From the NCBI GenBank assembly GCA_050084515.1, contig CM114271.1, forward strand, positions 16,306,001 to 16,370,000: DNA of 64,000 bases, given 5' to 3'. A model generated the notes under the pieces. The model was given only the letters and a program-made list of their open reading frames with translations. It was not told the DNA's origin and did not search any database. The DNA comes from Blasia pusilla. Lineage: Eukaryota. The position numbers and the translations under genes were made by a program. This document shows, piece after piece, positions 30,704 to 64,000 of this stretch (its first letter is position 1; each line of letters starts with the position of its first letter).

Positions 30704-32124
<1,421 letters not shown>

Positions 32125-32128
32125 CCGT

Positions 32129-32990: not shown

Positions 32991-33299
32991 ACTGCCATAC
33001 AACGAGGGTATCCATTGGGATCAACGTCTCCACTTCAGGGGCCCGATCGCCACCTGACTCTCGCTACTCTGGGATAAAGGCATGACTCCACCCCTGCCTC
33101 ACGAGGTGGTTGGCACTCCTCTGTAGCTCTTGAGTCGTATCCCACAATGGTAAAGAGGTCTCGCCAACATGGGAAGAGGCACCCGCTATGGCCTGTCTCT
33201 CCGTGGGACTATCCGCTACTCGGACATCCTGTGCATGTGCATTCCCCTCCAACAGCTCTCATGACCAGCTTACGCTACTTGTGAAAGCTGCCAACGTGG

Positions 33300-33813: not shown

Positions 33814-33828
33814 CAAAGAGAGAATGAG
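33813..33828 (+). promoter_or_regulatory. Putative self-priming primer-binding site of V
   Basis: ACAAAGAGAGAATGAG is complementary (15/16 plus one G:U) to CTCATTCTTTCTTTGT at 33637-33652, about 28 nt after TATA at 33609. There is no TGG tRNA-type PBS. Confidence 0.7.
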
Positions 33829-39270: not shown

Positions 39271-39596
39271 GTCGTATGAGATCGCGACAGATCACAGCGG
39301 TTGCGTTGGTGAGCCCCATGCCTACCGAGACGGTGGAGGTAGTGGCTGGGGGCGAGACCCGAGGAGATCTACGCACCAGGGGAGATCGGGAGAGACACCC
39401 TTGGACTTCTTGGGATGTTTTGAAGGTATGCAAGGAGATGATAGCCACAACATCGAGCGCGGTTTCGGGCACTGCACGTGGAGGAGATCACAGTTTGCAG
39501 TTGGCTGCAGGAGAGCGGCCGAGTGTTTTTGTTCGAGACGGGGTTGCACCATAGCAACCACCGATACCCGCGCCGGAGAGTCCTACTGTAGTCACG

Positions 39597-41030
39597 ATGG
39601 AGACTTGGGAGCCAGATATGGGCCCTAAGTTGACAGGAGGAGAGCGGCGCCGAATACATCAGTTCCTCAGGAGTTATAGGAGCTGCTTTGCGTTTAGCAT
39701 GGAGGATTTGGGTACGCTGAAGGGACCGGGGATCCGCATTGAGTTGTCGAGTGATATGCCGATCTTTCGACGACCCTACAGGTATAGTGATATGGAGAGG
39801 GCTCTGATTAAGAGTAGGAGCCAAGACTTGGTCGGAGCAAGACTAGTGGAGATGTCGCATGGGGAGTATGCATCTGCCACTGTCATGCCCGCCAAGAAGG
39901 ATGTGCATGGCAACTAGACGGATAGGCGGATGTGTGGGGATTACCGACCTATCAATCGGCAGACGAAGTCCGATAGGTATGCCATGCCCACCCCTGAGGA
40001 GATCTTTGATGCGATTGGTCACGCAAAGGTCTTGATTCATTGATTTATGAGTGGATACCATCACCGCCTGCTATCGATTGGAGGACAGGCAGAAGACGGC
40101 ATTTTGGGGCATCGATCCTCACGGGAAGGATTGTTTGTACCAGTGGCGGTTCTTACCATTTGGGTTAAAGAACGCCCCGGCTGAGTTTCAGAGGGTCATG
40201 AATAGGATCTTGGCTGGTCTGGATTTTGCTAGGTGTTATATTGATGACATCGTAGTCTTTAGCGCCACGGTTGAGGAGCATGAGCAACATCTAGAGGAGG
40301 TGTTTCGACGATTGCAACTACATGGGCTGAAGCTACATCCACCAAGTGCAAGTTCTTCTACGACCAGATTGAGTACTTGGGTCATACGATATACCCAGGG
40401 GGCCTTGGTGTTCAGCAGACGAAGGTAGAGGCTATCTCACGCATTCCACGCCCTACAGATGTGAGCCGTGTTCGCGCATTCATGGGATTGGCGAACTTCT
40501 ATCGGCGATACGTCAAGGGATTCAGTTTGATTGGTCTTGGCCGACCTTGCTCACCAAGGTGGATCACGAGTGGCATTGGGGGGATGAGCAGGAGCGAGCA
40601 TTTCAGTTGCTCAAGGACAGGTTGACGTCCGCACCCATCTTGAGGAGACCGATCAGGGGGCGTCCTTTCCAGTTGCACACAGATTGGAGCATGTTGGGGC
40701 TTGGAGCGGTGCTCACCCAACATGATGATGAGGGTAGAGAGTTCGTGGTGGCTTACGCTAGCCGCTCGAACAACGCTGCAGAGGCGAAGTACAGCTCGTA
40801 TGAGGGTGAGTGCTTGGTCATGGTGTGGGTCGCCACATTTTAGGTGTTACTTATTCGGCAACCCCTTTACTATCATCACTGATCATCAACCACTGAAGTG
40901 GTTGATGGAGTCCGATAAGCTTACAGGGAAGCTTGCGAGATGGGCTCTGTTGTTGCAGGAGTATGATTTTCAGGTGGTACATAGACCTGGAATGCTCAAC
41001 CAGGATGCAGATGGGTTGAGTTGTAACCCA
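39597..41030 (+). pseudogene. Element V reverse transcriptase/RNase H
   Basis: YASATVMPAKKD, LPFGLKNAPAEFQRVM, CYIDDIVVFS, FMGLANFYRRYV, LHTDWSMLGLGAVL, YSSYEGECL, TDHQPL. Confidence 0.95.
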
Positions 41031-41219
41031 TGCCCGAGTCAGCGAGATGCAACTGGAGCTCGATGGCATGAAGAGAGTGATGAGGAGTCGGTGCCAAGAT
41101 GGCACGCGTCAGCCTATTTAGGCATGTTGGCTATGGAGAGCCAGAGTGTGGAGACTTCGATGGCGAGGTCTAGTGGAGAGTCTTTGGATCCCGAGGCCAG
41201 TGAGGACACGACAAGTGGC

Positions 41220-42659
41220 CGAGATATTCATGATGATGGAGTAGTCTTAGAGTACCTTCGTACTGGCAGCCTTGCGAGCACCATGGATGCTAGAGAGCGG
41301 GATCGGATCCTACAGCGGGCCTGACGGTTCCGTTCGGAGGGGACACATGTTTTGAGGGTTTGGGAGGATGGCAGAGTACGCGTAGTGCCGCATCCTTTGC
41401 AGAGAGCACGACTAGTGCAGCATGCCCACGAGGAGTTGGGTCACTTTGGGGTGAAGCGGACGTATAGCTTGCTCCAGATTCGAGATTGGTGGCGAGGCAT
41501 GCAGATCGCGTTCAGCAGCTTTGTTGCCAGGTGCATGGTGTGTGATCGGGTCGAGCATCGTTCTATGCTCCGACTCCACGATTGCATCCATTACCGATCA
41601 TGGGCTTAGGTATAGATGGAGTTTGGATTTTGCAGACCTTTGCCCTTGACGGAGCGTCACACGATCGTTATGTGTTGGTGATGGTGAGCACTTCTCGAAG
41701 TGGATCGAGTTGGTTGCATTGCCCGACAAAGCAAGTGAGGGAGTAGCTTATGCCTTCCTTGACAGTCTTTGTCGAGTCATTATGGCGCACCAACCGAGGT
41801 GTTGATGCACGGTACCGAGTTTCGCGGTGAGTTCAGGCCTTGTGTGATCAGGGCGATCGACCACCGACGATTTTCGCGAGATCATCCCGAGGCGGATGGA
41901 TTAGCGGAGAGAGTTGTGCAGACGGTGAAGAGGGGTTTACGCAAGTATGGCTTGCAGAGAGGTCACCTAGGAGATTGGGACCTCCAGTTGCCATGGTTGG
42001 CGATGGGATACAGATTCAACAGGCATGCATCCTTAGCGTCTTTTTCACCGTACTTGCTACTTTATGGCCGAGAGCCAGATTTTCCTGCGGCCATTCGTCG
42101 AGATGCTGGTGAGGTGCTGAACCTTGATGACCCAAATGTATGGGTGCGAGCATGTTCTCAGAGGGCTGAGTTATTTCGGAGAGTGATGCCCATGGCGTTC
42201 GAGAACTTGGCGATTGCACAGCATCGGGATACGTTGAGGTATGCGACTATTCGAGGTGGTGGTTATCGACCAACTATCCGGAGGTTTCATCAGGGAGATT
42301 ATGTCTATTTGCAGCAGACGGCACCAACGACGTTGGATGTGACTGCAGGGCGCACTATCCTGAGAGTGCATGACATTTTGCCATCGGGTGTTCTCTTGCT
42401 GGAGGGACGCGATGGTATGGTATGGCATGACCATGTGCGTAATTGTGCGCCATGTCACCTTCCTAACATTGATGGTACAGTAGATCCGAGCTTAGTAGTA
42501 GTTCCTGCAGGCTTGCGTTGTATGTTGTGTGGTTCTGCCCGTGGTGCGGCCACGATGCTAGTCTGTGATGGGTGTTCGAGAGGATGGCATATGGCATGTT
42601 TGATGCCACCTCTCACTAGGGTTCCTCAGGGACGATGGATGTGTCCCAGATGTACATAG
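41220..42659 (+). pseudogene. Element V integrase with C-terminal PHD finger
   Basis: HAHEELGHFG...CMVC (HHCC), ADGLAERVVQTVK, GDYVYL, CMLCGSARGAATMLVCDGCSRGWHMACLMPPLTRVPQGRWMCPRC (C4HC3). Confidence 0.92.
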
Positions 42660-42826
42660 AGAAGGTAGTTCTACATTCCGACTTGTGTCTATGACATGGA
42701 TGACAAGGAGGCGACTAACGATGGGGCCACATAAGCACCCGGCCTTCTTGCTCTTAGCGTCCGAGAGATGTATGTCATGGTAGGTAGGGATAGATGGCTA
42801 TCTGGAGTTAGAGGGACCTAACCACC

Positions 42827-42839
42827 AGCTAGGGGGGCG
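42827..42839 (+). promoter_or_regulatory. Polypurine tract of V
   Basis: AGCTAGGGGGGCG directly precedes repeat B1. The same motif precedes B in X (27173-27185) and W (58505-58517). Confidence 0.8.
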
Positions 42840-43604
42840 ATTGGAGATATTTTGGTTCTTCGTTATTTGGATGCCATGAGTTAGCATGGGATCATGCGTG
42901 TTTGTGTGTGTGTTCGGTGACAGCGATGTATGTTGTGTAGCGATGTGTATGCGCACGATAGCTGTCACGTCTTTTAGGATAGATCGGTGGGATCTAATAG
43001 AGCGCCTTCATGAGTAGTGGAGGACACGCCCAATAGGTTGAGGGTGACCTGCTGAGGCCCTTGGAAACCTGAGATAGCAGGTTTCCCCTTCGTTTCGGCT
43101 CATTTGGAGCCATATTGAGGAACCTACTATTTTAGGTAAGTACCATTTTGAGCATATGATCGAATTACTATTTTTGGTAAGTGGCCCTTGACCTCCTACA
43201 TCAGGTCAAGAGCCAAGGAGGTGACTTGAGAGAATAGGTTACCATGGAGAGAGCTTGGGAGAGGAGAGGGGTATACCTCAAGGAGAGAGAGCTTGAGAGC
43301 TCATTCTTTCTTTGTTGAACCTCTTGGCATGAGGCGGCGGAGCTATGGTACCTTGCCTTGTGAGTGTAACCCAAGCCTTTCATTAGGAGAGTGGGTTTGG
43401 TTTGACATGAGAGAGAGTGCACACCTTTGAGAGCTATGGTGTGAGATGGTGGAGAGAGAGATTGAATCTTACTTTAATTGGAGATATTTTGGTTCTTCTT
43501 GTCTCGTTGTTTGGATGCCATGAGTTAGCATGGGATCATGCGTATTTGTGTGTGTGTTTGGTGACAGCGATGTATGTTGTGTAGCAATGTGTATGCGCAC
43601 GACA
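42840..43604 (+). repeat. V 3' terminal block B1-GC-A2-B2
   Basis: B1 42840-42960 and B2 43477-43604 are direct repeats differing by a 7-bp indel and a few substitutions. A2 equals A1. Junction GCACGATA-GC-TGTCAC. Confidence 0.95.
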
Positions 43605-44380
43605 GTGGTCACAGACTCGTCTCGTGATTGACCTCCTCGTCTTGCAAAGTGCACGAGTAATTGACTCATCGGGCCGTCACTTGACCGCCACCCTGACCGA
43701 TAAGCAATGGTCTCCTCCCAAAAGTCAAGGATGAATCCTAGGGGATATAACACTGTACTCCCCACCAACACATCGTACAACTCAATTGGTGTCATAATCG
43801 CACGTGTGCTCACGTGTGCGCACCATAGCACTATCCGTCGCATGCTCTGGCTGGACTTTGAAAACTATCTCCTGTCGAGTCATATATTGCGTTGGTGACA
43901 CGCCCCCAATCAAGGTCTGTATCTGGAAGGGACAAGTCTCAATGTTGGCCTTCCGTGACCCCAACGCTAAACACGATGCCTTCCCTAACATCAAGGGCTG
44001 CGCTCCCGAATCAAGTAGAAACGCGTACGGGTGGTATACTATCCCTGTCGGACTAACCAAGAAAAATACTCCAACTCGATTATTCAATAACAATACTCCA
44101 TGTGTCACCAGGGCTCGCTCTATGGCCGGTCGAGCTGACATATCTACAAACTTCTCCGCCGCCGCATGCCATGACTCTATGGGGGACGTTCCGAGCACCG
44201 GATGTGAGGGCAAGTCCACCACCTCCTCAACTACCTCTGAACAAGAAGCAGTCACCTCTCCACGTTCACACAATGTGGCGACCAGCCGGAACACCTCAAT
44301 TGGTCCAACTCTCAATGATGCCGACTCTATGGCGGAAAATAGCGGAGTCTAGCTCACTCTGGTGACCAACTCCAACACTA

Positions 44381-44440: not shown

Positions 44441-47007
44441 GTGATGTCGACATACCTGTCTGACCTGTAGGCACCGTTGGTCATTGAGGCACCATCGATG
44501 GTGTGTGTAGTGCCTCCGACAATGTGAATGACTGTGGAACCCTAGCGTGCCGCCCAACGGTCTCCTCCGTTGGGTCAATCTCAACTCCACCTCTAGATGG
44601 CTCAATGCATCTTGCAACACCACGAGTCACTACTGCAGCCGCCTCAACCTGAGCTGCACTACACATAAACCCCATACTAGCGAGATCCTCACCCGGGTCA
44701 GGGTAAGAGGTAGAAGTTGGAGCTACACTAGCTACTCGCGGCTCCATGCCTTCCCTGAGCAGCATCATCGTCACGGCAGCAATCCTCTGCTCTCCAACTG
44801 ATCGATGCGTGAGAGAAATGCTGGCTTTGGTGCTCTTGCTCCATCTCTTGTGGCTGGTGGTGGTCCTCTACCACCACGTCCAAGAAGAACTCCCTGACCT
44901 TCTCCAGGACGACCGCCCCGAGGCCCTTGGCATACCTCTGGACGTGCCTCTGGACGAAGGTCGAAACATCTATCCCTAGTCTGACCATATCTCTGGCAAT
45001 AGTCACACTAGTACTGTGGTGGGGCCATCCTCTGTGGTTCCTGACCAAATCTGAGGCGCTCGTGGTCCTCTCCCATGTTGTGTGGAGTCTCTCTGCATAT
45101 GGGCCTCTCCATACGTTCAACATGACAACATCGGTCCTTGCTGGGTAGCATATGTAGGTACGGGTCGTTGCCTCTTAGGCTCACAATACCCGCCTTGCTC
45201 TCTGGGCACACTTGCCCGCTTCCGTGGTACTGGTGCTCGTTGTGGCACTTGTGGGGTCACCGTCGCTCGTGGACCCGTCGACTCCCGAGAAAATCCACCG
45301 GTCATTACATGCTCCTCACTCATGTTGAGCTCAATACTCTCAGACAACTCAAAGATCACCTTCAATGTGGGCTTCGTTGTGTGAATCAGCACCGCATCTT
45401 GGACTCTCCTCTGTAGTTCTCGGTCCAGAATCCCATACCAATAAAAGATTGACTGCGTCTCAGTTATTCCACACGTAGCAATGATCAGCCTCCTCACGCA
45501 TCTGAATGTCTCTCTCAGATTCTCACCCGGCCGTCGCTGGAAATCTTGTAGACTCTTCAGCTTGTCGGTGAGTACGCCCTAGTAGCTCTTCCCCAACTAT
45601 CGGAAGAACTCCACTGTGGGACTGAAGCTGGGTGGCCCTCTACCACCAGAGGTCTTTGCCACATCGTCTGTCTCACTGCCCTCTTCTCCATCTAGTCTCT
45701 AGGCTGATGGTGTGGGTCTCTCTCCTCTCACGATCCCATCATATGCCTCACGACCACTAGTGGACACATACCCTGGAGCCCAATACATCCTCCACGCATC
45801 GATCTCTACTGAATATAGTGATTGAAACTCCATGAAATCATCCATCGGAGGACCCTCCAATTGTTGGAACAACCCCTTCCACACCATGAAAGGGTTTAAC
45901 CGTGTCGGGGTTCTTATCTCTTGGAAGTCGCACCACGTATTGAACTCTTGGATATCTAAGTCGATGGTGCCCATTGCACCCGAGAACCGACGCATGCCCC
46001 GATGGCCCATGTTGTCCATCTCTTGCCAAGTGATACCGCCTTCGTCTGCGATCTTGTCACCAGACCCAGTGTCTAGTGATGACGATCCAGCCATGGATGG
46101 ATGTCGAGGTAGCTCCTCACTCGTAACCCCTCGGTATCTCACTCCACTCCGTGGCACATCACTACTACTGCTCGCACTACCCCATTCTTCCAAAGCTTGG
46201 AAGAACGCCGTGATGACAACTCCGTCTCATCCGCTCAAGCACTCAGACTCACCGAGAGTCTCCCATACTCCTCACTAGCTCACATATGCTAACGTCAATC
46301 CCGTGATGACACACCCAACCTCACGCACACTCAACACTCAGGCTCACCATGAGCCTCCCACTAACTCATCTAACCTACCGACATGCTCGGGTCATACATG
46401 CGACCCCTACTCAGAAACCGCCATATATCCACCAATATGCTACATATAAAAAGAGTCTACACTCATCACCATCATTGCACCCATCTAGCACCAGCTACTA
46501 CTCGATATCCATGTCACATCTGAGTAGCCGATAGGCCGAGATCTATCGTGGATAGGGCGTAGGAGCCAGCGGACTATCTTGAGTGTAACTTTGTCCCACG
46601 GTGTTGGATGAGGTCGAGGATAGGTCCATTGTGTCAGGAACGTTGTTTCTGACAACTTTCATGTTGAGGTCTTTTACAGTCGGGTGACTTGTTGACTAGG
46701 TCACCCGCCCCTGATAACCTGTGTGCGCAGATTACCAAGTGAAGGGCTATTTTTAGGGGAAGAACCTTTTGGCTCTTCTCCTAAAAATAGCCAAACATCT
46801 TCTTCAACATGAGAAAGATGGCTTTCCTAAGCCATCTTTCTCATGTTGGGCCGTTGGAGCACATCCCTTGTATGTGTGTGAGCTAGGACTAGGGTGCTAG
46901 CGTCCGGATTCCTTGATAGCACAGGGTGGACGAGGTTCGATATGCCGATGTAGATTGAGGAGTGGAGTTTTACGCCGGGTGTGCCGTTTTTACTACTCTT
47001 TATTTCT

Positions 47008-47021
47008 ACATGAGAAAGATG
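47008..47021 (+). promoter_or_regulatory. Putative self-priming primer-binding site of Y
   Basis: ACATGAGAAAGATG is the exact complement of CATCTTTCTCATGT at 46833-46846 inside repeat A. In W's copy of A this motif starts about 31 nt after TATATAA. Confidence 0.75.
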
Positions 47022-47150
47022 TCAGGGGGCTGGTGGAAATTCGTTGTTTGCAGGTAGGCAAGCGAGTTGCCTTGGTCGGGAGCCCCTGGAGACATGTGTG
47101 TGACGTTTTGTGTGTCATTTTTCTGTTCGGAAGGCCGTGCGCAGAAGCGC

Positions 47151-48331
47151 TGTCGTATAGTAAAATCAACCAGTGTGTAAACTCCTTCGTCATTAAGTGT
47201 TAGATAGAGTTTCATTAGTATTAAGTAAATTGGCTTAGAAAAAAGAGATTCTTATGTTTAAACCTCTTTATGGTACCTCTTTTATGCAGGCCCAACTTTA
47301 GGAAAAGGAGGTAATAAATAAAAGATGACTTTATCAAAGTAAAGTAGTTGCTTTAATGAAAAGCAAAAGTAGTCTTGGTTGGTGGCTAGGTTAGTTGGGG
47401 TAATTTGGAAAATATCAAGTGGGTAAAAGAGGATATTTTGGAAGAGATAAGAGGAAATCTACTTGTGTCAAAATGTGATTGGCTAAGCCTTGAGAGGAAA
47501 CCATGTGGCACAAGATAAGATAAGTTCTATTTTGTACTCTTGTGAATCCCTTGTGAGTATATAAAGAGGAGGGACCTTCAAGGGTTCATCACCTTCTATT
47601 CCACATCTTGAGTCTCTCGTGTCTCTCTTGAGTGTATGGCTTTGGGATTGCTTGCTCTTCAAATGAGAGTGGATCACCCCTCTTGGGAGAGTAACTTGAC
47701 CATGGTCTATTCTTCGAGAGATTTCTAGAGTGTGGTGTGTGTGTGTGGGGATGAGAGGTTTGTCACCGTAGAGGAGTTTAGTCATACTAAAATAGCGGAT
47801 GTGTCAAGCATGGATAGGGGTGGAGCACGAGCTGTGCCCGACTTTCCTTTCCTCAATCCTTACCATGTCAAGGTACTTTTTGTAGATAGGCACTGGTTCA
47901 CTCGCTATTTAGTTTATCATTTTGGGGAGGCGTTCATGAACCAGGTCATGCAATCTCCAACTCCGGTGATTCTTCCTATTGTCACATATGGAAGGACATG
48001 GGATTGTACTTTGTATGTCCTTATATAGCGATCCATGGATGTCAATAGGCCTGCTCAAGTAGGGTTTAACACTAGTTGTGCTATCTTCCTCGTGTACAAG
48101 CGTAAAATAGTTTATAGGGATTTTATAGTTAGGAATTTTGGGGTCCGATGTTACGAAGAAGTGATCGCCTCGGCACTTCCATTTGTGATACCTGTCGTGA
48201 GAGAATGGAGAGTGTACATCATAATTTTGTATTGAAAAAGGAGAACTTATTAGAGAGTTCACCTTGCATCGACCGCATCTATCGCAGCTAGAAGGCCCGC
48301 CCTTGCTCGAAGAAAGACTCTCGACACGACA
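47151..48331 (+). mobile_element. Solo unit U2 (TGTCGT...ACGACA, TSD GCGC)
   Basis: GCGC at 47147-47150 and 48332-48335; TATATAAA at about 47558; homologous to U1. Confidence 0.9.
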
Positions 48332-51300
48332 GCGCTGTCCATTTTTCTTAGATTTTGCTGGTGCGGAATGATGGGGGACAGCAGGAGGGTGTCGCGTAGG
48401 TTGTGTTGGCATGAGTAACGTCGTCTTATAGCTCGTGGAATGTTGGGAGTACCCTGGGAGAAGAGTTAGAACTTGCAGCTGCCAGGGGGCTGTCAAGTAA
48501 AGGGCTGGTCTAGGGTTAGGGCGCGGCGGCGACGGGCGCCCTAAACGCGCGCTGGCGGGTATCGGAGGTATCGCCGATGCTGCTAGATGGGTGCAGTGAT
48601 GGTGACCAGTGTAGATTCTTTTCATGTGTAGCATGTTGGTGGATATACGGCGTTGCCGAGTAGGGGTCGTGTGTATGACCCGAGAGAGTGTCGCTAGGTT
48701 AGGTGAGTCAGTTGGGAGGCTCATGGTGAGCCCGAGTGTTGAGCGTGCGTGAGGCCGGGTATGTCATCACGAGATTGATGTTAGCATAGGTGAGCTAGTG
48801 AGGCGTGTGGGAGACTCTCGGTGAGTCTGAGTGCTTGAGCGGGTGAGACAGGGTTTGTCATCACGGCGTTCTTCCAGGGTTCTGAAGAACGGGGTAGTGC
48901 GAGCAGTAGTAGTGGTGTGACACAGAGTGGAGTGAGATACCGAGGGGTTACCAGTGAGGAGCTCCCTCGACATCCATCCGTGACTGGATCGTCATCACGG
49001 ACATTGGGTCCGTGGCGAGATCACGCAGAGCGAAAGATAATACTTGGCAGGAGATGGACGACATGGGCCATCGGGGCATGCGTCGTTTCTCGGGTGCAGT
49101 GGGCACCATCGACTTAGATGATTTTATCCAGGAGTTCGACACATGGTGCGACTTCGAGGAGATACGGACCCCAGACGGTTCAACCCTTTCATGGCATGGA
49201 AGGGATTGTTCCAACACTTAGAGGGTCACCCGATGGATGCCTACATGGAGTTTTGATCACTATATTCAGTAGAGATCGATGCTTGGAGGATGTATTGGGC
49301 TCCAGGGTATGTGTCCACTAGTGGTCGCGAGGCATATGATGGGATTGTGAGAGGAGAGAGACCCACACCATCAGCCCGGAGACTAGATGGAGAGGAGGTC
49401 AGTGAGACAGGCGATGTGGTAGAGACCTCTGGTGGTAGAGGGCCACCTAGCTCCAGCCCCACAGTGGAGTTCTTCTGACAGTTGGGGAAGAGCTACCAGG
49501 GCGTACGCACCGACAAGCTGAAGAGTCTAGAGGATTTTGAGTGACGATCGGGTGAGAGTCTGAGAGAGGCATTCACACGCATGAGGAGGCTGATCATTGC
49601 TACGTTTGGAGTGATTGAGGCACAGTCAGTCCAGTATTGGTACGGGGTTCTGGACCAAGAACTACAGAGGAGAGTCCGAGATGCGGTGCTGATTCACACA
49701 GCGAAGCCCACATTGAAGGTGGTCTTTGAGTTGTCTAAGCGTATTGAGCTCAACATGAGTGAGGAGCAGGTAGTGACCGCTGGATTTTCTCGAGAGTCGA
49801 CGGGTCCACGAGCGACGGTGATCCCATAGGTGCCACTGCGAGCACTAGTACCACGGGAGCGGGCCAGTGTGCCTAGAGAGCAAGGCGGGTACCGTGAGCC
49901 TATGAGGCAACGACCCGCACCTACATATGTTGCCCAGTAGGGATCGATGTGGTCTTGTTGGACGTGTGGAGGGGCCCATAGGCAGAGAGACTGCCCACAC
50001 CATGGGAGAGGACCACCAACGCCTCCAATTGCTCAAGAGCCACAGAGGATGGCCCAACCACAGCACCAGTGTGACCATTGCCACAGATATGGTCACACTA
50101 GGGATAGATGTTTTGACCTTCGCTGAGGGGCACGTCTAGAGGTAGGCCGAGGGCTTGGGGGCAGTCGTCTTGGAGGAAGTCGGGGAGTTCTTCCTAGACG
50201 TGGCGGTAGACGACCACCACCAGCCAGAGGAGATGGAGCAGGAGCACCAGAGCGGGCACTTCTCTCACGCATCGATCAGTTGGAGCAGAGGATTGCTGCC
50301 ATGACGATGATGCAGCTTGGGGAAGGCACGGAGCTGCGAGCAGCTAGTGTGACTCCAACTTCTATCTCTTACCTTGACCCGGGTGAGGATCTCGCTAGTA
50401 TGGGATTTATATGTAGTGCAGCCCAGGTTGAGGCAGCTGCAGTGATGACTCGGGGTGCTGCGAGAGGCACCGAGCCATCGAGAGGTGGAGTTGAGATTGA
50501 CCCACAAGAGGGGACCGATGGGCGGCAGGCCAGGGTTCCACAGTCGTTCACATTGTCAGAGGTACTACACACACCATCGATGGTGCCTCGACGACCAGCG
50601 GTGCCTACAGTTCAGGCATCTACGTCGACGTCACGAGGAGTTGGAGTGACAACTCCTATGCCGACTCGAGTGGAGTCAATTTCGACCATAGTGTTGGAGG
50701 TGGCCACCAGAGTGAGTCACACTCCGCTATTTTCCGCCATAGAGTTGGCGACGTTGGGAGTTGGACTAGTTGAGGTGTTCCGGTTGGCCGCCACGTTGTG
50801 TGAGTGTGGAGAGATGACTGCTTCTTGTTCAGAGGTAGTTGAGGAGGTGGGGGACTTGCCCTCAGAGCCGGTGCTTGGGACGTTCCCCACAGAGTCATGG
50901 CATGCGGCGGGCGAAGTTGCTAGATATGCCACTCGACCGCCATCAAATGAGCGATGGTGACACTGAGTAGTGTTACTGGATAACCGAGCTTGAGTATTTT
51001 GCTTGGTTAGTCCGACGGGGATGGTACACCACCCGTAGCGCATCCTACTTGATTCGGAAGCGCAACCCTTGATGTTAGGGAAGGCGGCGTGTTTAGCGTT
51101 TGGGTTACGAAAGGCCAACAGTGAGCCTTGTCCCTTCCAGATATAGACCTCGATTGGGGGCGTATCACCCACTCAGTATATGACTCGACAGGAGATTGTT
51201 GTCAGAGTCCAGCCAGAGCATGCGACGGAAAGTGCTATGGTGCGCGCACGCGTGCGATTACGACACACCGTAAGTGCGATGTCTTGGTGGGGAGAACCGT

Positions 51301-51754: not shown

Positions 51755-52668
51755 GGTGTTAGGGTGTTAGATCTCTTCGGAGGGATTAGCACCGGATTGG
51801 CTGTAGTATTGCAGGCGGGCATACGGGTGCATCAGTACCTTTATGTGGAGAGAGATGAGACCGCGCGGCGAGTATCATTACGTCACGTGGCGAGATTGGT
51901 CCAGAGGTATCCTGAGTTGTTGTCGGTATCTGTAGTACGGGGATACCAACATACGCTACCCGCCGACATATCTTTGGTGGGGGCGCAGGATCTGGATAGA
52001 GTTGGCACGATTCATTTGGTGATTGTTGGATGGCCATGTCAGGGTCATTCATGAGCTGGCCGAGGATTTGGATTGCAGGATCCGAGGTCAGGGATGTTTT
52101 GGGAGATGCTGCGAGAAGTACGACACTTGTAGGAGGGTCAGATATGTTCTCCAGCGTACATTTTGGAGAACGTGCCATTGTTGGGAGATACTCGTGCACA
52201 TGTGATGACGAGTGTACATCAGGTGAGGTCCTGGTTGGGACCTTCTGTGTTGTTAGATGCAGCGAGAGTTGGGTCACGTGCCCATCGTCCACGACTGTGG
52301 TGGACGAGCCTGATACAACCAAAGGTACTGAGTCGAGCATACAGTGGAGTCCAGAGAGCACCACATTTCACAATGTATGCTTTTTCGGGCTCAGGGCTTA
52401 GATCTCACGTGGTGACACGGGATGATAGACCACCGTTGTCCATGGTGAATAGGGTGGGGGAGTTGAGGGCAGCCTTACCTGCGTTGGTGAGCTTCCCAAC
52501 ATCCCATGCCTTTCGTCAGGGAGGGCCAGGCATGATTTGGAATGAGGTCACCATAGCATTGGAGGAGCCTACAGCAGATGAGCGCGAGCGCGCCATGGGG
52601 TTCACTACTGGTACTACGGCGGTGCCAGGGATGATTGAGGCATCACGGAGATAGGTGTTGGGGCAGGC
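51755..52668 (+). pseudogene. Element Y DNMT3-like C5 cytosine methyltransferase domain (in-frame stops)
   Basis: One frame: VRVLDLFGGISTG...YVERDE...ADI...LVIVGWPCQGHS*AGRGFGLQDPRSGMFWEMLREVRHL*EGQICSPAYILENV...RAHRPRLWWT...ERERAMGFTTGTT...SRR*VLGQA. Confidence 0.92.
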
Positions 52669-53913
52669 TCTGATACCCACAATTTTGTACTCTTGAAGAA
52701 TATATCTTTTTATTCAACGAAGACTCTTGTATATTATGATTATGATTATTTATTATTATGAAGAAGAATGAGTGAATCACGAAGCTCCTGGGACAAGGCA
52801 GAGAGATGGAAGATCAAGGATTTGCCTTAGAGGAGAGGAAAACACAATAACAAAGTCTCAAGACTCAGAACGAAGCTTAACGAAGCTCAACGAAGATGTA
52901 TGAAGCTCTCTCATTGAAGTGCTTCGCTACATAACGAAACATCACGAAGAAAAGAAGAAAGAAGTACTTTGCTCTTGCACGAAGCACAAAGCACCGAAAG
53001 TAAGAACGAAGCATGAAGTACTTCGTCCTCAAGGGAAGAAGAAGAAGTCCAAATTTCGCAGCGAAGCAAAGCTAAGAAGGACTGTGATTTCAAGCGACAC
53101 ATAGTTAGAAGAGTTAGACTAGGAAAAGGCGCGACCCTTAATATCAAATTGGTAGTTAGGACAATTTTGTGCTGCGGATTCACAGGGATCGTAGGAAAGC
53201 TAAGAGAACCATAGATCTAGATAGTTAGAAATAGTGAAGAGACACTAGCTTCATCAAGAACGTTTCGAATCTTTCAATCACTTCCACTCCAACGAATATT
53301 TAAGAAGCAAGGCAGAAGCCATAATCATCATTCTCTTACGAAGTCCTTATGTTGTAGGAATGGTCTGAGCAAGAGAGTAGTACCCTCTTGAGCTTGTATA
53401 CACTTTGAAGCTTTCTCGTTCTTGATGGAGTAGTAAAGCAATCATTCATTCATTCTTATGTGCGATGCTTATGTCTGAGTATTCTTTTTGGGTCTGCAGA
53501 GTGAAGAGTGAATCAGGCGAACCTTTCTCATCAGTGAAATAATCAACATGAGTTTTAGGAAATCTGTTTGACAGAGAGTAACCTGCCGAGACAGATTGAG
53601 TTCCGAAAGTAGGAGAAGCCAACTTTTAGGTTGAGATCTCTGTGAGGTTTCTTGATGTCGAGAGGAAAATCTACCTGAACATGCTATCAATTCCACTAGA
53701 GAGAATCGAGAAAAGATCCTTTGGTACTAAGAAAGATCAGAAGATATTGATGAGACATTGAATATAACTCACACACATTTAAATACAACTATTACAACAT
53801 ATTTGTAATTCCGAACTCTCTTTTCATCAAACAATGATCCTCTTGGGGATCGAACTTATTAAAACGACTATAAACTAGAAACACTTGTACATCACACATA
53901 GCAAGAAACTTTT

Positions 53914-53931: not shown

Positions 53932-54717
53932 TCATATTCTTTGCTGAAAAGGGAGAGAGATACATGGGAAATCCGGAAGCGGGGAAAGAAGCCTCGGCTC
54001 TGGGAAGACCCAACCAGCTAGTTCTTACGGAAGACCATCTGATATCTCTCGCGATTCCCCTCAGACAATGGATGAAAGAAGATAACAACATATTTGCTGC
54101 ATTGGTGCTAGAAAAGATAGAACAATTAATTAGCCTTGTCAATAAACCAGTCGCCGAACGGTGCTCCGCCCATGAACGTCAGTTGTACTTGGTGATGACC
54201 CGATACTTATGTTTATGGGAGGAAAACATGGCAGGAAGATTAAGAGCACCTGGCACACTTCTGTAGGACTAGGAAGTAGAAACCTTTAATTGCCCCTCCA
54301 TGGACCCCTACCTTTTTGCGACCGTGGGGGCAGAAGCAAGTTCCCGGCTCCCAGAAGGGGCTCATGGAAGGATCTCGGCCCTCTTCGCGAGATCAGCGAG
54401 CCGATCGACGGAGTAAGCAACAAGAAGATCACCTTGCTTGGAGACCTCATGGGCTGTCTCCCGGTTTTCGTCTTCGCACGAAGCCCAAGAGCAAGAAGAG
54501 AGACAGGAATAAACTCTCCACTACGTCCCCTACCAGTTCGCAGTCGGACGAAGAGTCAAACTAGGACCCCTTTGGAGAGTCAGGGACGGGGCCGACCCAA
54601 TCAACTAGAGCGGAGCCGCTACCTCCTCCCTCCCGAGCCTCAAGACCGGGACCCACCAGCAGACCATTCCCCATGGCCAATACTAGGAAGACGCTTGCTA
54701 AGGTACCCTGACTTTCT

Positions 54718-57700
54718 TTGGGACGGCGAGATGATGTGGACAACTTTGTGCTGGAATTTACCCATGTAGACAAGGCAAATGGGGAAGGTTCAGAGGAGGA
54801 CTTGTTGCGAGTCTTTCCTAGCCTGCTCAAGAAGCGAGCAAGCCAGTGGTACGAGGGTCTCGGAGCGGACGTCACGGAAACATGGAAAAGGGTATTGGAG
54901 TCCTTCCTACATGAGTTCTGCGACCTTGAGTTCGAGGACAGGCTTCTTACGAAGCTTCGCAACCTGAAACAGAAAAAGAACGAAACTCTCCAGGAGTACA
55001 CACAAAGGTTTCGCATCCAGGTGAATAAACAGGAACACACCACTACCTCGCAACTGGTAGATTGGTTCATGTCAGGACTGTCCAAGGAAATAGACCGGTA
55101 CTGCTGGCGAGGCCAACGAGATTCCCTAGAAGCAGTCATAGCCTCCGCAGAGGCTTACGAAGCCTCAGAGAAGTCCCGTAAAATACGAAGACGGTGTCAC
55201 CAATGCCGAGGTTCGTCGCAAACTAGTGCTTTGTCAGAGGACGAAGCGTCCTCCACAGACACGGAATCCTCTATGGGGGATACTTCGGAGTCCTCGGACT
55301 CGGAAAAAGATGTAAAATCTAAACGTAAAGGAAAAAGCACGCGCCACCACTCTCCCAAGCACCGAAGAAAAACCCGACCCACAAAGCACCTTCCCCAGCG
55401 GTCCGAAAGTCCAGTAAGGGGGACAGCAAGGAAGGCCGGCAAGTCGGCCATGGAAGAGTTAAGTAAGCAAATGGCATAATTGAAGGTACATCTGGCGGCC
55501 CAGAAGGACCCCAGAAGACGGCTAGGTCTGATGAGGCCCAACATCTGGTGTAGTACCTGCGGATCCCAAGGGCATACTGCCCAGGAATGCCACATGCAGA
55601 GGGATGTATGTTGGATGCAAGAAGATACCACTACAGAAGAAGGGTGGTATGAACCCAAACAGGGGGAAGGGTGCTATGCCATCCAAGCTGTGCCACCACC
55701 AAATCCCGGACGAAGTTGGATCACCCGATATGTGCCTCCGGAATACGGGGAACAGAGACCCCTGAGATAGATTATGGGCGCGGTAGCCTTCACGCCACCC
55801 ATAAAAAGGAATTGTTGTTATAATTGCGGTGCGGCTGACCATTGGGCTAATAATTGCCCAAACCCAAAGCGGCCAGTAGGACTCAATCCCTTGTGCGGAA
55901 ATTGCAAGAAAGGCGGGCACACTGCAGTGGAATGCCCGGAGCCCAAGGTTCCGTGGTTGTTGGTAAAATATGTCAACACCCCAGCAGCCCAACCAGAGTC
56001 CAAGAATGACGTAAATGTGCAACTTGTCCGAGTGGAAGAGTTAGGGTCCCCCGGGCCAAAGCGAGTCACTATCAGGGAGGAAGACTCAAACAGAGCGGAC
56101 GCCGAAGAATCATTGGACTAGCCCAAAGAGTTCCAAGAAACCGTTCTGGTTGTCACCACGAGGTCCAAGAGTCAGACCGCGGGGAACCCCAAGGCAAGGA
56201 AAGGTGCTTCATCTTCGCGTGAAGCTCAGGACCCCAAGGCGAAAGGTGTCGATGCCTTCCACACCGGGAAGGTCATCCTAAAAGGCGATGTGGACCCGAC
56301 CTTCGATCGAAGTCACCCTAAGTACTTCCATCAAGATATCGAGGAGCAGGTTCGGGCTCAAGTGCGTCAGGACCAAGGACCAGAAGGGAGGAAGACCCCA
56401 GCGCCGACGAGAACCGGAATGACTCCGGCAGTGCAAGCCATCGCGACGTCACCGCTGGTCTTAGAAGCCTACGACCTACTCAGGGACTTGGCGTCAACCC
56501 CGGCCAATATAACCCTATTGCAATTATTAATGGATAACCCAGTGTACAGCAAAATTTTGCAGCAGTGGAAGATAAGCCGTAAAAAACCCAAGAAGTGCGC
56601 AAAGCATCTACCAGTAGTGGATCTGTTCCGTATTGAAGTGGAAGACTTGGGAGCACCAGAGGTAGAGGTGGAGATTGAGGGGCACACCATTAAGAAGGTG
56701 CCCATTGACTCAGGAAGCGGAATTAACATTATGACAGAACAGACAGCTCGGGCACTAGGATATACGGAGTGCGAGCCCACCGAGAAGTATCTGCGGTTTG
56801 CGGATCAGTCCCGGAAGCGACCCCTCGGACAGCTCACTCAGATCCGGACCATGCTTGGGCGGGTGCTATTTCTGTTGGACTACTTAGTCTTGCAGCCCCT
56901 GACAACCACGGGCTATCCCTTGCTCATTGGACGACCGTGGCTGTATGGTGCGCGAGTGACGACGGATTGGAGGAGGCAACGTTTCACGTTCCAGGCTCCG
57001 GACCAGGTCTCTAAGCGGCTCATCAAGTTGTTGTGGAAATCACGACCATCCCAAGGAGAAAAGCCACCGACCGACGAGGGCTGTACATCAGATCAAGAGC
57101 AAACTACAGCTACTGAGTCCTCGTCGAATGTGTATTATTTAGAATGCTACGAAATAGACGAAGAGTCGATACCTACCAAACCGATGTCAACCCGAGAAGA
57201 AGAGAAGCTAGGTCATAGCACATTCCAGTTTATAGAGAGTATGGTTCAAGAAAAGGACTACATACAGGTCTTAGTTGCAGATCAGAAGTCTCTACGCCTC
57301 TCGGCGGATTTGTCTCCCACCGAACTCCTCCTGTATAAAAGATTATTGTTTGAGTATTTGGATGTGTTTGCATACTCCATGGATGAAATGACAGGCATTC
57401 CTGCACGGTATGGTGAACACAGAATTGACCTAAAAGAAGGTGCGGTACCGGTACGAATGAGGTAGTATCGCCTCAACCCGAAATACTCGTTACTAGTCAA
57501 GGACGAGATTGACCAGCGTCTCGGAGTAGGAATAATTAATCTGGTGTTAAGTAGCGAGTGGGTGTCTCCCATTGTGATTGTACCCAAAAAACAAACGGGA
57601 AAAATTAGAGTGTGCCAAGATTACCGGAAATTGAATGCGGCCACCTTAAAGGACCATCACCCCCTACTTTCACTGACAGTATTTTGGATAAAGTTGCCGG

Positions 57701-57760
57701 CCACGAGTGTTATTCTTTTTTGGATAGATACTCGGGTTATAACCAAGTATCCATACGAGA
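54718..57760 (+). pseudogene. Element Z gag-pol (in-frame stops, truncated in RT)
   Basis: ORFs 54718-55479, 55480-55770, 55774-56121, 56290-57465 and 57544 onward lie in one frame separated by stops. Confidence 0.85.
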
Positions 57761-58580
57761 TGTCGTGCATACATATCGCTACACAACATACATCGCTCGT
57801 TACATCTACACCACACAACACCGATCTTCCCCACACACGGGTTGATCCACACATGTACAAAAATCAACTCATACATATACATGTAGATCACACAACAAAA
57901 ATAAAGAGTAGTAAAAACGGCACACCCGGCCTAAAACTCCACTCCTCAATCTACATCGGCATATCGAGCCTCGTCCACCCTGTGCTATCAAGGAATCCGG
58001 ACGCTAGCACCCTAGTCCTAGCTCACACACATACAAGGGAGGTGCTCCAACGGCCCAACATGAGAAAGATGGCTTAGGAAAGCCATCTTCCTCTCTTATA
58101 TAGGTTGGGAAGAGCCAAAAGGCTCTTCCCCTAAAAATAGCCCTTCCCTTGGTAACCTGCGCACAGAGGTTACCAGGGGCGCGTGACCTGGTCAACAAGT
58201 CACCCGATTGTAAAAGACCTCAACATGAAACGAAGTTCCTGACACAATGGACCTATCCTCAACCTCATCCGACATTGTGGGACAAAGTTACACTCAAGAT
58301 AGTCCACTGGCTCCTACGCCCTATCCACGATAGATCTCGGCCTATCGGCTACTCAGATGTGACAGCTGTCGTGCGCATACATATCGCTACACAACATACA
58401 TCGCTCGTCACATCTACACCACACAACTCCGATCTTCCCCACACACGGGTCGATCCACACATGTAAAAAAATCAACTCATACATATACATGGAGATCACA
58501 CAACCGCCCCCCTAGCTGGCAGTTGGATCCCCCTAACTCCAGATAGAAAATATCACATCTCTCTGACATGACCTACTACC

Positions 58581-60000
58581 CTATACACATCTCGGACACA
58601 TCCATCGTCTCGTGGGAACCAGATCAAGAGGGGGGGTCAGACATGACATATGCCACCCTCGAGAACAACCATCACATACCAACATGGTGGCTGCACCCCT
58701 TGCAGATCTGCACAACATACACCTCAAGCCTGCAGGTACCACTGCCAAGCTCGGATCCACCGTCCCATCTACGTTCGGAAGATGACATGGCGCACAATTG
58801 CGCACATGATCCTTCCAAACCATACCATCCCGTCCCTCCAACATGAGGACTCCAGTCGGTAATACCTCGCGCACACGTAGGATCGTGCGCCTTGCACTGA
58901 CATCTAGCGTCGTGGGTGCCGCCTGCTGTAAATACACGTAATCTCTAGGATGAAACCTCCTAATCCTTGGACGATAACCTCCTCCACGAATGGTCGCGTA
59001 CCTCAATGTATCTCTATGTTGGGCAATAGCTAAGTTCTCAAAGGCCATAGGCATAACTCTACGAAAAACTTCTGCCCTCTGAGAATATGCTTGCACCCAC
59101 ACATCTCGATCATCAAGATCTAACACCTCCGCCATGTCACGTCGAATCACTACAGGTAAATCTGGCTCTCTCCCAAAGAGCAAAAAGTACGGTGAAAATG
59201 ACGCCAAGGATGCCTGCCGACTAAAGCGATAACCCATAGCCAACCATGGCAACTGTAGGTCCCACTCCCTCAACTGTCCCCGCTGCAAGCCATACTTGCG
59301 CAATCCTCTCTTCACCATCTGTACAACTCTCTCCGCCAACCCATCCGCCTCAAGATGATCCCTAGACGTGGTGCGGTGATCTATCAGCGGCTGATCACAC
59401 AAGGCTTGAAACTCTCCCCTGAACTCGGTACCCTGGTCAGTCAACACCTCCGCCGGTGCACCACAGTGACTAAGCACACGATCTAGAAACGCATAAGCTG
59501 TTCCCTCGCTCACCTTGTCTGGTAGTGCCACCAACTCTATCCACTTGGAGAAATGCTCCACCATGACCAACACGTACCTATGATGACGCCCTGTCAATGG
59601 CAAAGGTCCCGCAAAGTCTAAACTCCACCGATAACCTAAACCCATAATCGGCAAAGGATGTAGCTGCAGAGTGGGAGCATTGAAGGATGCTCGCACTCTG
59701 TCACATACCATACATCCGCCACAAATGGCTGTACCCAAAGATGCATGCATGCGCCACCAATACTGAACCTGGAGTAAGCTGTAAGTACGCTTTACTCCAA
59801 AATGTCCCTACTCCTCATGGGCATGTCGCACTACACGTGCTCGTTGGGAATGATGAGGTACCACTCGTATCCTACCATCTCCCCATACCCGCAAAATGTG
59901 AGTTGCCTCCCACCTGAACCTCTTGGCTCTCTGTAGGATCCGATCCCGCTCCCTAGCACTCACTGTACTCGCAATGACGCCAGTGCGCAAGAACTCCACA
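58581..60000 (-). pseudogene. Element W integrase with PHD finger
   Basis: 389-aa ORF: CMVC, WSLDFAGPLP, LTDQGTEF, DGLAERVVQ (D,D,E intact), CMLC...CDGC...WHMSC...WMCPRC. Confidence 0.93.
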
Positions 60001-60229
60001 ACCTCCACGTCGTCATGGATATCACGACCATGTGTCGCCTCCTCACTAACCTCCGGATCCAAAGACTCATCATCCAATCCCACCACTGGAGTCATCACCT
60101 GTGGCTGACCTGCCATAGTCAACCAACAAAGATAGGCAGATGGATGCCAACCGGGCACCATCTCCTCATCACTCTCTCCGTGCCATCGAGCTCTTGTGTC
60201 GTTTCTCTGACTCGGACATGGGTTACGAC

Positions 60230-61660
60230 TCAACCCATCCGCATCCTGGTTCAGCCGACCTGGCCTATGAACCACCTCAAACTCATACTCCTGTAGTAAT
60301 AGAGCCCACATGGCAAGCTTTTCCGTAAGCTTGTCGGACTCCATCAACCACCTCAACGGCTGATGATAAGTGATAAGTGTGAAAGGGTTGCCAAATAAAT
60401 AGCACCTAAAATGTGCCACGGCCTACACTGCAGCCAAGCACTCTCCCTCATAGGAGTTGTACTTCACCTCTGCAATGTTGTTTGATCGGCTCGCGTAAGC
60501 CACAACGAACTCTCTCTCCTCCTCATCCCTCTAAGTAAGCACTGCTCCTAGACCCAACATGCTCCAATCCGTATGTAACTGGAATGGGCGACCCCTAACC
60601 GGTCTCTGTAAAATGGGTGAGGACGTCAACCTATCCTTGAGCTCCTCAAATGCTCGCTCTTGATCATCTCCCCACAACCACACCTGATCAAGTCTCGTCA
60701 ACAAGGTCAAAGACTTTGCGATCGCACTACAACCCTTGACATACCGTCGATAGGAGTTCGCCAGTCCAAGAAATGCTCGGACTCGACTCACATCTATAGA
60801 GCGTGGAATCTGCGCAATAGCCTCTACCTTCGTCTGCTGAACGCCTAACCCACTCGCGTATATGGTGTGTCCCAAGTACTCAATATGCTCCTGAAAGAAT
60901 CTGCACTTGCCTGGATGTAACCGGTCCATGTAATCGCAATCGCCAAAACACCTCCTCCAAGTGTCGCTCATGCTCCTCACCCGTGGAACTGAAGATAAGA
61001 ATATCATCTATGTAACATCGTAAAAAATCCAAGCCAGCCAGAATCCTATCCATCACTCTCTAAAACTCCGCAGGCGCGTTCTTCAACCCAAATGGTAAGA
61101 ACCGCCACTGATACAAGCAATCTCTCCCGAACCGATCTATCCCCAAGAATGTTGTCTTCTCCCTGTCCTCCAACTTTGATAGGAAGCGATGATAGCCAAA
61201 GACGGAGATCTAAATCAAGATCTTTGCATGCCCTATCGCATCAAAGATCTCCTCAGGAGTAGGCATGGCATACCGATCTGACCTCGTATGTCGGTTGATA
61301 GGACGGTAATCTCCACACATCCGCCTATCCGTCCAATTGCCATACATATCCTTCTTCGCCGGCATGACTGTGGCATATGCATACTCCCCATGTGATAACT
61401 CCACAAGTCCTGCCTCCAAAAAGTCCTGACTCTTGCTCTCAATCAAGGCTCGCTCCATATCAGAATACCTGTAGGGTCAACGAAAGATCGGCGTATCACT
61501 AGCCAACTCAATCCGTATCTCGGGACCCTTCAGCGTACCCAAGTCTCTCATACTGAAGGCAAAACAACTGACATGCCCTCTCAGAAACCTATGAACTTGC
61601 CGTCGCTCTCCTCCTATCAACTTGAGACCTATCACAGGCTCCCAAGTCTCCATCGTGACC
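60230..61660 (-). pseudogene. Element W reverse transcriptase/RNase H
   Basis: RMCGDYRPIN, KCRFFQEHIEYLGH, FLGLANSYRRYV, LHTDWSMLGLGAVL. Confidence 0.92.
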
Positions 61661-61959
61661 TCACTCGGAGAGGACGCAACCTCCGGCTTTGGTTGCTATG
61701 TAGCAATCCTAGCCACCTCCGCAACAGCCACTCCACTCTTACCTCCTACACCATGCTCCACATCCGAAAAATGAACATGTGGTTCTCTGGCCGCCTTTGC
61801 ACTCTCCGCTCGAACGACGTCCCAAGAAGTCCATGGGTGCCTATCTCTCCTCGTCTCGCTTGACCAATGCCTGTCACAGACCACCTCAGAGGCAATGGTC
61901 CAACTCGTGGACGTGACGGCATGGATGACACTCGCATCCGTCTCTGCTCAGCCATACTT

Positions 61960-62915
61960 AGGCTGACTATCCATGTTAGACAGTTGAGGTCCATCGCGTG
62001 CCCCAGCACGTGTCTTCGTGATGCCTCAGTCATCCCTGGCACCGCCGTAGTACCGGTAGTGAACCCCATGGCGCGCTCGCGCTCATCTGCTGTAGGCTCC
62101 TCCAATACTCTGGTCACCTCATCCCAAATCATGCTTGGCCCTCCCTGACGAAAGGCATGGGATGATGGGAAGCTCACCAACGCAGGTAAGGCTGCCCTCA
62201 ACTCCCCCACCCTATTGGCCGTGGCCAACGGTGGTCTATCATCCCGTGTCACCACGTGAGATCTAAGCCCTGAGCCCGAAAAAGCATACATTGTGAAATG
62301 TGGTGCTCTCTGGACTCCACTGTATGCTCGACTCAGTACCTTTGGTTGTATCAGGCTCGTCCACCACAGTCGTGGACGATGGGCACGTGACCCAACTCTC
62401 GCTGCATCTAACAACACAGAAGGTCCCAACCAGGACCTCACCTGATGTACACTCGTCATCACATGTGCACGAGTATCTCCCAACAATGGCACGTTCTCCA
62501 AAATGTACGCTGGAGAACATATCTGACCCTCCTACAAGTGTCGTACTTCTCGCAGCATCTCCCAAAACATCCCTGACCTCGGATCCTGCAATCCAAATCC
62601 TCGGCCAGCTCATGAATGACCCTGACATGGCCATCCAACAATCACCAAATGAATCGTGCCAACTCTATCCAGATCCTGCGCCCCCACCAAAGATATGTCG
62701 GCGGGTAGCGTATGTTGGTATCCCCGTACTACAGATACCGACAACAACTCAGGATACCTCTGGACCAATCTCGCCACGTGACGTAATGATACTCGCCGCG
62801 CGGTCTCATCTCTCTCCACATAAAGGTACTGATGCACCCGTATGCCCGCCTGCAATACTACAGCCAATCCGGTGCTAATCCCTCCGAAGAGATCTAACAC
62901 CCTAACACCCTCCTC
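61960..62915 (-). pseudogene. Element W DNMT3-like C5 cytosine methyltransferase domain
   Basis: VRVLDLFGGISTG, GWPCQGHS, ENV, RAHRPRLWW, ERAMGF, RRHVLGHAMDLNCL. Confidence 0.92.
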
Positions 62916-64000
62916 TCGGCACTGCCACACAACAGGTCTGGTATCTAGTGGGGTCATCGTCTCCACTCCAAGAGCCCGATCGCCATGTGACTCTCGCTGC
63001 TCTGGGATAAAAACATGACTCCACGCCTGCCTCACGAGGTCGTCGGCACTCCTCTGTAGCTCTCGAGTCGTACCCCATAATGGTGAAGAGGCATCGCTAA
63101 CATGGGAAGAGACACCCGCCATGGCCTGTCTCTCCGTGGGACTATCCGCTACTGGGACATCCTCCGCATGTGCGTTCCCCTCCAACAACTCTCCTGGCCA
63201 GCTAACACTACTTGTGAAAGCGGCCAACATGGTCACAGACTCGCCTCGTGATCGACCACCTCGTCCCGCAAACTACACGGGTAACTCACTCATCCGACCG
63301 TCACCTGACCGCCATCCTGGCTGATAAGCAACGGTCTCCTCCCAGAAGTCAAGGATGAATCCAAGGGGATATAACACTATACTCCCCACCAACACATCAT
63401 ACGACTCAGCTGGTGTCGTAATCGCACGTGTGAGCACCATAGCACTATCCGTCGCATGCTCTGGCTGGACTCTGACAACAATCTCCTGTCGAGTCATATA
63501 CTGAGTGGGTGATACGCCCCCAATCGAGGTCTGTATCTCGAAGGGACAAGGCTCAATGTCGGCCTTCCGTAACCCCAACGCTAAACACGCCGCCTTCCCT
63601 AACATCAAGGGTTGCGCTCCCGAATCAAGTAGGACGCGCTGCGGGTGGTATACTGTCCCCGTCGGACTAACCAAGCAAAATACTCCATCCCGGTTATCTA
63701 GTAACACTACTCCATGTGTCACCACTGTTCGCTCTATGGCCGGTCGAGCTTGCATATCTACCAACTTTGCCGCCGCCGCATGCCATGACTCTGTGGGAAA
63801 CGTCCCAAGCACCGGCTCTGAGGGCAAGTCCACCACCTCCTCAACTACCTCTGAACAAGAAGCAGTCACCTCTCCACGCTCACACAACGTGGCGGCCAAC
63901 CGAAACACCTCAGCTGGTCCATCTCCCAACGTCGCCAACTCTATGGCGGAAAATAGTGGAGTCTGACTCACTCTGGTGGCCACCTCCAACACTATGGTCG

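Follow-up and report, generated by a model that had tools for sequence, protein, structure and literature searches.

An internal end-to-end junction as candidate integrase attachment site in split-repeat Ty3/gypsy elements of Blasia pusilla

Which retroelements carry their terminal repeats in the split order A-B-A-B? Split direct repeats are otherwise described for the tyrosine-recombinase elements PAT, TOC1, Ngaro, and VIPER (PMC4157794). One description combines such a layout with Gypsy domains: a single legend sentence on KnitGypsy-Dnmt3 of Klebsormidium nitens, which reports DIRS-type A-coding-B-A-B repeats (de Mendoza et al. 2018, PMC5890265). That legend was the sole description of this combination found in our literature search, which ran outside subscription journals and Repbase reports and returned nothing on an attachment (att) site inside a permuted long terminal repeat (LTR) or on its mechanism. 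Self-priming, in which the primer site right after the 5′ repeat can pair with a segment within this repeat, is known from Tf1 and Tj1 (PMC4600332) and predicted for Tcn1 (PMC6317226). Among retroviruses, PFV integrase in vitro cuts both strands of a palindromic circle junction of the CA-AT-TG type after CA, which produces 5′ overhangs of 2 nt (PMC1180852), and HIV-1 integrase tetramers cut the HIV-1 circle junction (PMC1905944). The circle-junction model of 1984 has been overturned, and linear DNA is the accepted retroviral precursor (PMC11054761).

We analyzed a 64-kb stretch of the Blasia pusilla genome (hereafter, the window), which is a nest of retroelements. Element V (33300-43604, plus strand) has the order A1-internal-B1-GC-A2-B2. 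Its 513-bp repeat A1 (33300-33812), with the 5′ terminus TGTCA, is followed by a primer-binding site (PBS; 33813-33828); a polypurine tract (PPT; 42831-42839) precedes repeat B1 (42840-42960); and repeat A2 (42963-43476), 98% like A1, carries one additional A (43476), which is the first PBS base, at its seam with repeat B2 (43477-43604), which forms the 3′ terminus. Element W carries a V-type 3′ block on the minus strand: a PPT consisting of a G-run (58505-58513), kept before B1 in all families examined; a 138-bp B1 starting directly after it (58367-58504); A2 (57897-58364), which ends in a T-run and not in CA; and, joined straight to A2, B2 (57761-57896) with the 3′ terminus ...CACGACA. V lies between copies of a GTGG target duplication (33296-33299 and 43605-43608), and the TCTC flanking W recurs at the W 5′ end beyond the window; both duplications are intact. 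That 5′ end (contig 1, about 16372700-16372870, locus L261) is atypical: positions 1-35 of A run directly into the final 113 bp of B, followed by a second junction and then A1, i.e., an extra deleted A/B unit or a deleted tandem within the intact TCTC duplication.

The preliminary description of this DNA singled out a perfect palindrome in W. A sequence search of the window finds GACAGCTGTC at 58361-58370, its single exact copy in 64 kb, and, as had also been described, a V counterpart with one C>T change (GATAGCTGTC, 42957-42966). Palindromes of 10 bp are by themselves unremarkable, with 85 in the window. This one is the B1|A2 boundary of abundant Ty3/gypsy elements: in W, the B1 end CGACA, the spacer GC (58365-58366), and the A2 start TGTCA (58360-58371, minus strand), and in V, CGATA-GC-TGTCA (42956-42967, plus strand; spacer 42961-42962). 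The left half is the elements' 3′ terminus (...CACGACA) and the right half their 5′ terminus (TGTCAC...), an assignment that had been proposed earlier and is now fixed by the GTGG duplication around V. The roughly 45 bp before the junction had been called the only repeat sequence common to V and W, and a comparison of the A and B repeats agrees, significant alignment being confined to the final 45 bp of B. V and W share a second, previously unnoticed block immediately flanking the repeats, namely the polypurine sequence ahead of B1 (42798-42843 in V vs. 58546-58501 in W, 87%).

How widespread is this junction? In the 390-Mb B. pusilla genome, the pattern CACGACA-N0-6-TGTCA has 2919 matches, vs. 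104 for a reversed control, and 2237 of the 2919 (control, 2) have a purine-pyrimidine spacer of 2 nt; these counts are lower bounds, because mutated copies escape the patterns. A third family, T, was found among 30 junction loci. The A repeats of families V, W, and T do not align with one another, and their B repeats are alike over the last 39-60 bp only. CACGACA-GC-TGTCA with its 2-nt spacer is kept in all three and in several metagenome families, among them one with about 50% integrase identity and different A and B.

The spacer is 2 nt long in 27 of 28 V junctions collected without constraint on the spacer, in 22 of the 25 true junctions in the set of the first 30 loci, and in all 24 metagenome loci having a B1/B2 pair (60 of 80 loci examined, several being the same copy from different assemblies). 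A hand count of the first 100 junctions, almost all from contig 1, gives GC 37, GT 30, AC 25, and AT 8. Of the invariant CAGCTG that the preliminary description expected across copies, the 2-nt length thus held and the sequence did not. Random variation of the spacer, which would have counted against an att site, is not what we observed: length is nearly constant, and the changes are C>T and G>A transitions at a CTG, on one strand or the other, that can be methylated. The spacer changes at rates similar to those of the two other RCTG sites of repeat A (0.32; mean CTG, 0.18), and spacer states are unclustered on the tree (10 changes vs. 12.1, and 12 vs. 11.6). These changes are most simply read as later methyl-cytosine decay of an ancestral GC spacer. 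Invariance within a family would be expected from descent alone. The earlier proposal of a candidate internal att site is well supported by comparison, more strongly by conservation between families whose repeats cannot be aligned, by where the priming sites lie, by the seams, and by a mirror copy (all but the first described below), the nicking itself being what we infer.

Insertions begin with TGTCA and end with GACA, flanked by a 4-bp target duplication of varied sequence, and the two halves of the junction are therefore the sequences that integrase joins to the target. When 20 copies were fetched with their upstream DNA, the 5′ end was recoverable in 14, of which 13 have an exact 4-bp duplication and one a duplication with a single mismatch; in the metagenomes, only three of five full copies have an exact one. 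Copies that stop at B1 without a junction make up 27 of 56 scorable copies in short-read metagenome contigs vs. 1 of 29 in the Blasia genome, where the lone example has no matching target duplication. Assembly collapse or recombination may explain the metagenome cases. Other departures from the common layout were seen in some copies: a doubled 3′ unit, A-internal-B-j-A-B-j-A-B (where j is the junction), in L232/L231 and L258/L260, probably arose by unequal exchange between B1 and B2, and in L236/L235 and L266, A2 is followed by the PBS and tandem leader repeats (about 550 bp seven times in L235).

Where would reverse transcription begin and end in such an element? In every family, a G-rich PPT stands directly before B1 and not before A2, and directly after A1 there are 12-16 nt complementary to a site inside A, with a sequence that differs per family. 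The self-primer inside A pairs with the PBS over 15 of 16 bases in V (33637-33652), 14 of 14 in W (self-primer in A2 at 58058-58071, minus strand, the exact complement of the W-family PBS), and 12 of 12 in T. Metagenome copies show 17/17, 15/15, two at 10-11, and one degraded pair. The V match, with its one mismatch, does not by itself beat an exact-match control. The pair forms the closing helix of the predicted leader fold in V, W, and T, and inspection by eye revealed no tRNA-like priming site after A1. By standard LTR logic, the cDNA LTR of such an element is B-GC-A, and its sole att-like sequence is internal. A PPT before B1 and a self-priming site after A1 should thus make reverse transcription yield B-GC-A LTRs whose ends lack TG...CA. 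Canonical LTR architecture is absent in further respects, as A stands alone at the 5′ end and has no CA end. In V, W, and T, B starts with 2-3 bases plus TG after the PPT (e.g., 42840-42843), a faint resemblance to a leftover of an ancestral U3 att.

For B2 to come after A2, a cDNA with these LTRs must have had its right end joined to its left end, and the A2|B2 seams carry traces of both. Hand counts of the first 100 seams in each family, again almost all from contig 1, gave the following. Among those of V (1252 in total), 74 have no extra base, 20 have an added A, three AC, one ACAA, and two something else; A, AC, and ACAA are the first bases of the PBS (24 of the 100). The seams of T and W are tidier than those of V, with PBS pieces of 1-8 bases or the last bases of the PPT: four PBS-derived and one PPT-derived among the first 100 of 863 in T, and four PBS-derived and five with an extra PPT G among the first 100 of 571 in W. 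Separately, in four W or T seams the PBS is kept with another 35-160 bases, which run straight into the first base of B.

We consider it likely that in this Ty3/gypsy clade the attachment site of the integrase has moved inside the LTR and lies at the junction, and that the cDNA ends are joined and the circle opened at CA-GC-TG. RNA would start inside A1 at the self-primer and end in A2. Tf1-type self-primed reverse transcription would turn it into a linear cDNA, [B-GC-A]-internal-[B-GC-A], with ends other than TG...CA, and joining of both ends would create the seam and a 2-LTR-type circle. The DDE integrase would then nick after CA on each strand of CA-GC-TG, producing two CA-3′OH ends with 2-nt 5′ GC overhangs, equal to the product of ordinary 3′ processing, and strand transfer would give A1-internal-B1-GC-A2-B2. 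A plausible benefit is that integration would become independent of clean primer removal.

The joined molecule would hold two junctions; opening the 5′-LTR one would give the common layout and opening the other a mirror layout, A-B-GC-A-internal-B. Which of them is opened? The ratio of PPT-B-j-A to seam-B-j-A is 475:0 in V, 246:1 in W, and 404:1 in T, and both exceptions are internal duplications. A free symmetric circle cut at random predicts about equal layouts and is rejected on these counts. The pattern junction-A-PBS, counted in W and T, has six W and five T matches. One T copy is a true mirror, A-B-GC-A-internal-B, with AAGT duplicated on both sides (C2, 41.50-41.51 Mb; L271, L275); deriving it from the common layout would take about three recombination events vs. 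one cut from a circle. Both sites thus seem usable, to judge from this single insertion. The 5′-LTR site is used in >99% of scorable events. Both sites have identical flanks, and a bias of >99% has no explanation in the sequence; our guess is that the 5′ site would become double-stranded much earlier, the 3′ one requiring about another 9 kb of synthesis.

This one-sided bias would be explained naturally if integrase cut first and the ends were joined later. Integrase would open the 5′-LTR junction on linear or growing cDNA and hold the short B piece, and the seam would form later, either through end joining by the host or because the reverse transcriptase switches template a third time; the junction would still be the att site, with no need for a closed circle. 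Seams do resemble repaired ends, one V seam retaining the whole G-tract plus filler bases. However, most seams are precise (71-94 of 100 have the same length), and the mirror copy with its intact duplication would need a seam between intact halves at the 3′ cut, for which a prior join is the simplest account. We regard this order of events as unlikely.

Is the seam made anew or inherited? Seam states are scattered on a tree of 60 V copies (21 changes vs. a shuffled mean of 17.7); this tree was enriched by choice for extra-base seams and many of its inner branches are weak, and the starred branches alone force at least seven changes. The two B repeats show concerted evolution: of 128 minor alleles, 48 are shared within a copy, vs. 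17.7 expected, and there is no fixed difference between B1 and B2 in 18 copies. In only 3 of the 18, however, is the nearest B2 that of the copy itself. The primer leftovers, the scatter on the tree, and the sharing within copies point to a seam made in each cycle; as read from these copies, the A2|B2 seam is a fresh end-to-end join every time. An inherited seam was rejected, as its states do not cluster by lineage.

Inheritance of the seam is nonetheless part of the copying model proposed for the split direct repeats of PAT/Ngaro tyrosine-recombinase elements. Applied here, the RNA would include B2, and the junction would be a template for rebuilding the ends, with a 2-nt overshoot and then 3′ processing. 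The A-B-A-B layout is the same (PMC4157794), the repeats evolve in concert, and some sense-strand RNA reads map to the A2/B2 bin, too ambiguous for transcript ends to be placed. These come from three raw RNA runs labeled as this species, each with about 5,000 reads, mostly 90-95% alike and strongly one-stranded along related copies, whose depth is low before the primer bin, rises in it, and falls over A2/B2 (A1/A2 reads are ambiguous, and no start peak is listed). Yet an inherited seam would cluster by lineage and would not gain PBS and PPT bases, and the model assigns no function to the conserved PPT that precedes B1 or to the self-primer that follows A1, which makes it improbable. We give almost no credence to a fossil, i.e., passive inheritance of a junction formed long ago when ordinary elements with an A-B LTR inserted head to tail or formed a tandem: A2-B2 does begin with TG and end with CA, and there are solo A-B units flanked by target duplications, but such units are expected from A1/A2 recombination under any model, A1 lacks both B and a CA end, there is no PPT ahead of A2, the 12-bp core with its 2-nt spacer is retained amid unalignable repeats, and no related families with free spacer length were seen.

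What proteins do these elements encode? In copies of V, W, and T, motifs and Pfam matches give the Pol order protease, C5 DNA methyltransferase, reverse transcriptase (RT), RNase H, rve integrase (PF00665, E 1e-12), and PHD finger. In W, the integrase core with its intact D-D35-E triad and the C-terminal PHD finger lie at 58581-59807 (minus strand), and the rest of pol, broken by stops and frameshifts, at 59808-64000 (minus strand; protease 63615-63632, C5 DNA methyltransferase 62487-62639, RT YIDD 61000-61014, and RNase H). D64, D124, and E159 are invariant in seven sequences (W and six relatives). Among solved structures (PDB), Ty3 is the best match of the integrase, with foamy-virus integrase also among the closest. 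The methyltransferase domain sits between protease and RT (62487-62639, minus strand; 38578-38727 and 52025-52177, plus strand; L080:2534-3133). PF00145 matches T- and W-family copies, and its match to the V family is weak and below the cut-off. Named homologues are proteins of Marchantia, Closterium, Klebsormidium, and Haematococcus, and those of K. nitens are 43-51% similar in pairwise comparison over RT-RNase H. REM1, a PHD-bearing gypsy element of Chlamydomonas, is reported to have odd ends. The methyltransferase fusion also occurs in the Marchantia and Closterium proteins and is thus wider than in the Klebsormidium report (PMC5890265). Pfam detected no tyrosine recombinase in 55 stop-free frames of at least 95-110 aa from three copies, nor in 28 and 15 other frames, and no relatives were found in viral contigs. 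The elements are Ty3/gypsy, and not members of PAT/Ngaro despite their split-repeat layout; by their domains and repeats they probably belong to the KnitGypsy-Dnmt3 clade.

The window holds further elements beside V and W. The W-family copy X (46512-47021, plus strand) has A1 (46512-47007) and a PBS (47008-47021) and lacks its 3′ part. What we take to be a tRNA-Met-type primer site (52668-52679, minus strand) adjoins its truncated end. Another W-family copy, U (27035-27171, minus strand), ends at B1, without junction, A2, or B2, and its 5′ end was not found. W itself is inserted into a different gypsy element with gag, protease, and RT (54290-57770, plus strand). A xanthine/uracil permease family match at 5153-5800 (minus strand) is probably a host exon. 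Element Z (1.2-1.4 kb; 30703-32126, plus strand, and 47148-48334, minus strand) has the ends TGTCGT...ACGACA, as in the split families. A search of 20 Z matches yielded no end-to-end junction (0 matches) and no common internal flank, and Z comprises either solo LTRs or a non-autonomous element. The sequence GACA-GCGC-TGTC at 48334 was rejected as a junction, being the target duplication of an inserted Z. The 4-bp duplications of Z are biased to NCGN (15 of 20 right flanks), a preference reported for Phygy (PMC6317226).

If the preferred reading is true, these elements separate the end point of the cDNA from the attachment point of the integrase, which are fused in all textbook LTR elements, and the layout noted but unexplained in Klebsormidium is accounted for. 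We lean, with less assurance, toward a broader statement: that a widespread green-lineage clade would integrate as a rule through an end-joined, 2-LTR-type intermediate opened by a DDE integrase at an LTR-internal palindrome, with the same logic possibly standing behind the split direct repeats of tyrosine-recombinase elements. Such a clade would be a natural, standing version of the circle-junction model abandoned for retroviruses, and the junction offers a 12-bp natural substrate for asking whether a DDE retro-integrase uses circles as its main precursor, a question long argued in retrovirology. The seam test, i.e., primer leftovers and scatter on a tree, can be applied to PAT/Ngaro elements too. 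These elements have thousands of junctions in the genome, and LTR finders that need paired TG...CA LTRs beside a target duplication would probably miss or mis-delimit them.

How do the Blasia elements compare with known systems? They resemble KnitGypsy-Dnmt3 in Gypsy domains, a cytosine methyltransferase inside Pol, and A-B-A-B repeats; the likeness is by description of layout, and the description as seen in PMC5890265 gives no junction, priming sites, seam, or mechanism. With PAT, TOC1, Ngaro, and VIPER they share the order A1-internal-B1-A2-B2 and an internal copy of the end-to-end junction (PMC4157794), but they have an rve DDE integrase, random 4-bp duplications, a protease, a PPT, and a PBS. 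As in Tf1/sushi and Tcn1, the primer site lies directly 3′ of the 5′ repeat and is complementary within that repeat (PMC4600332, PMC6317226); those elements, as described there, have two full LTRs, att at the cDNA ends, and mostly a chromodomain, whereas the Blasia elements have a PHD finger and permuted ends. The predicted opening of the junction resembles that by the integrases of foamy virus and HIV-1, where processed ends result when a palindrome is cut in staggered fashion behind CA. In retroviruses, however, the palindrome is the LTR-LTR seam itself, while in the Blasia elements it lies inside the LTR, apart from the seam, and its opening would seemingly be the regular route.
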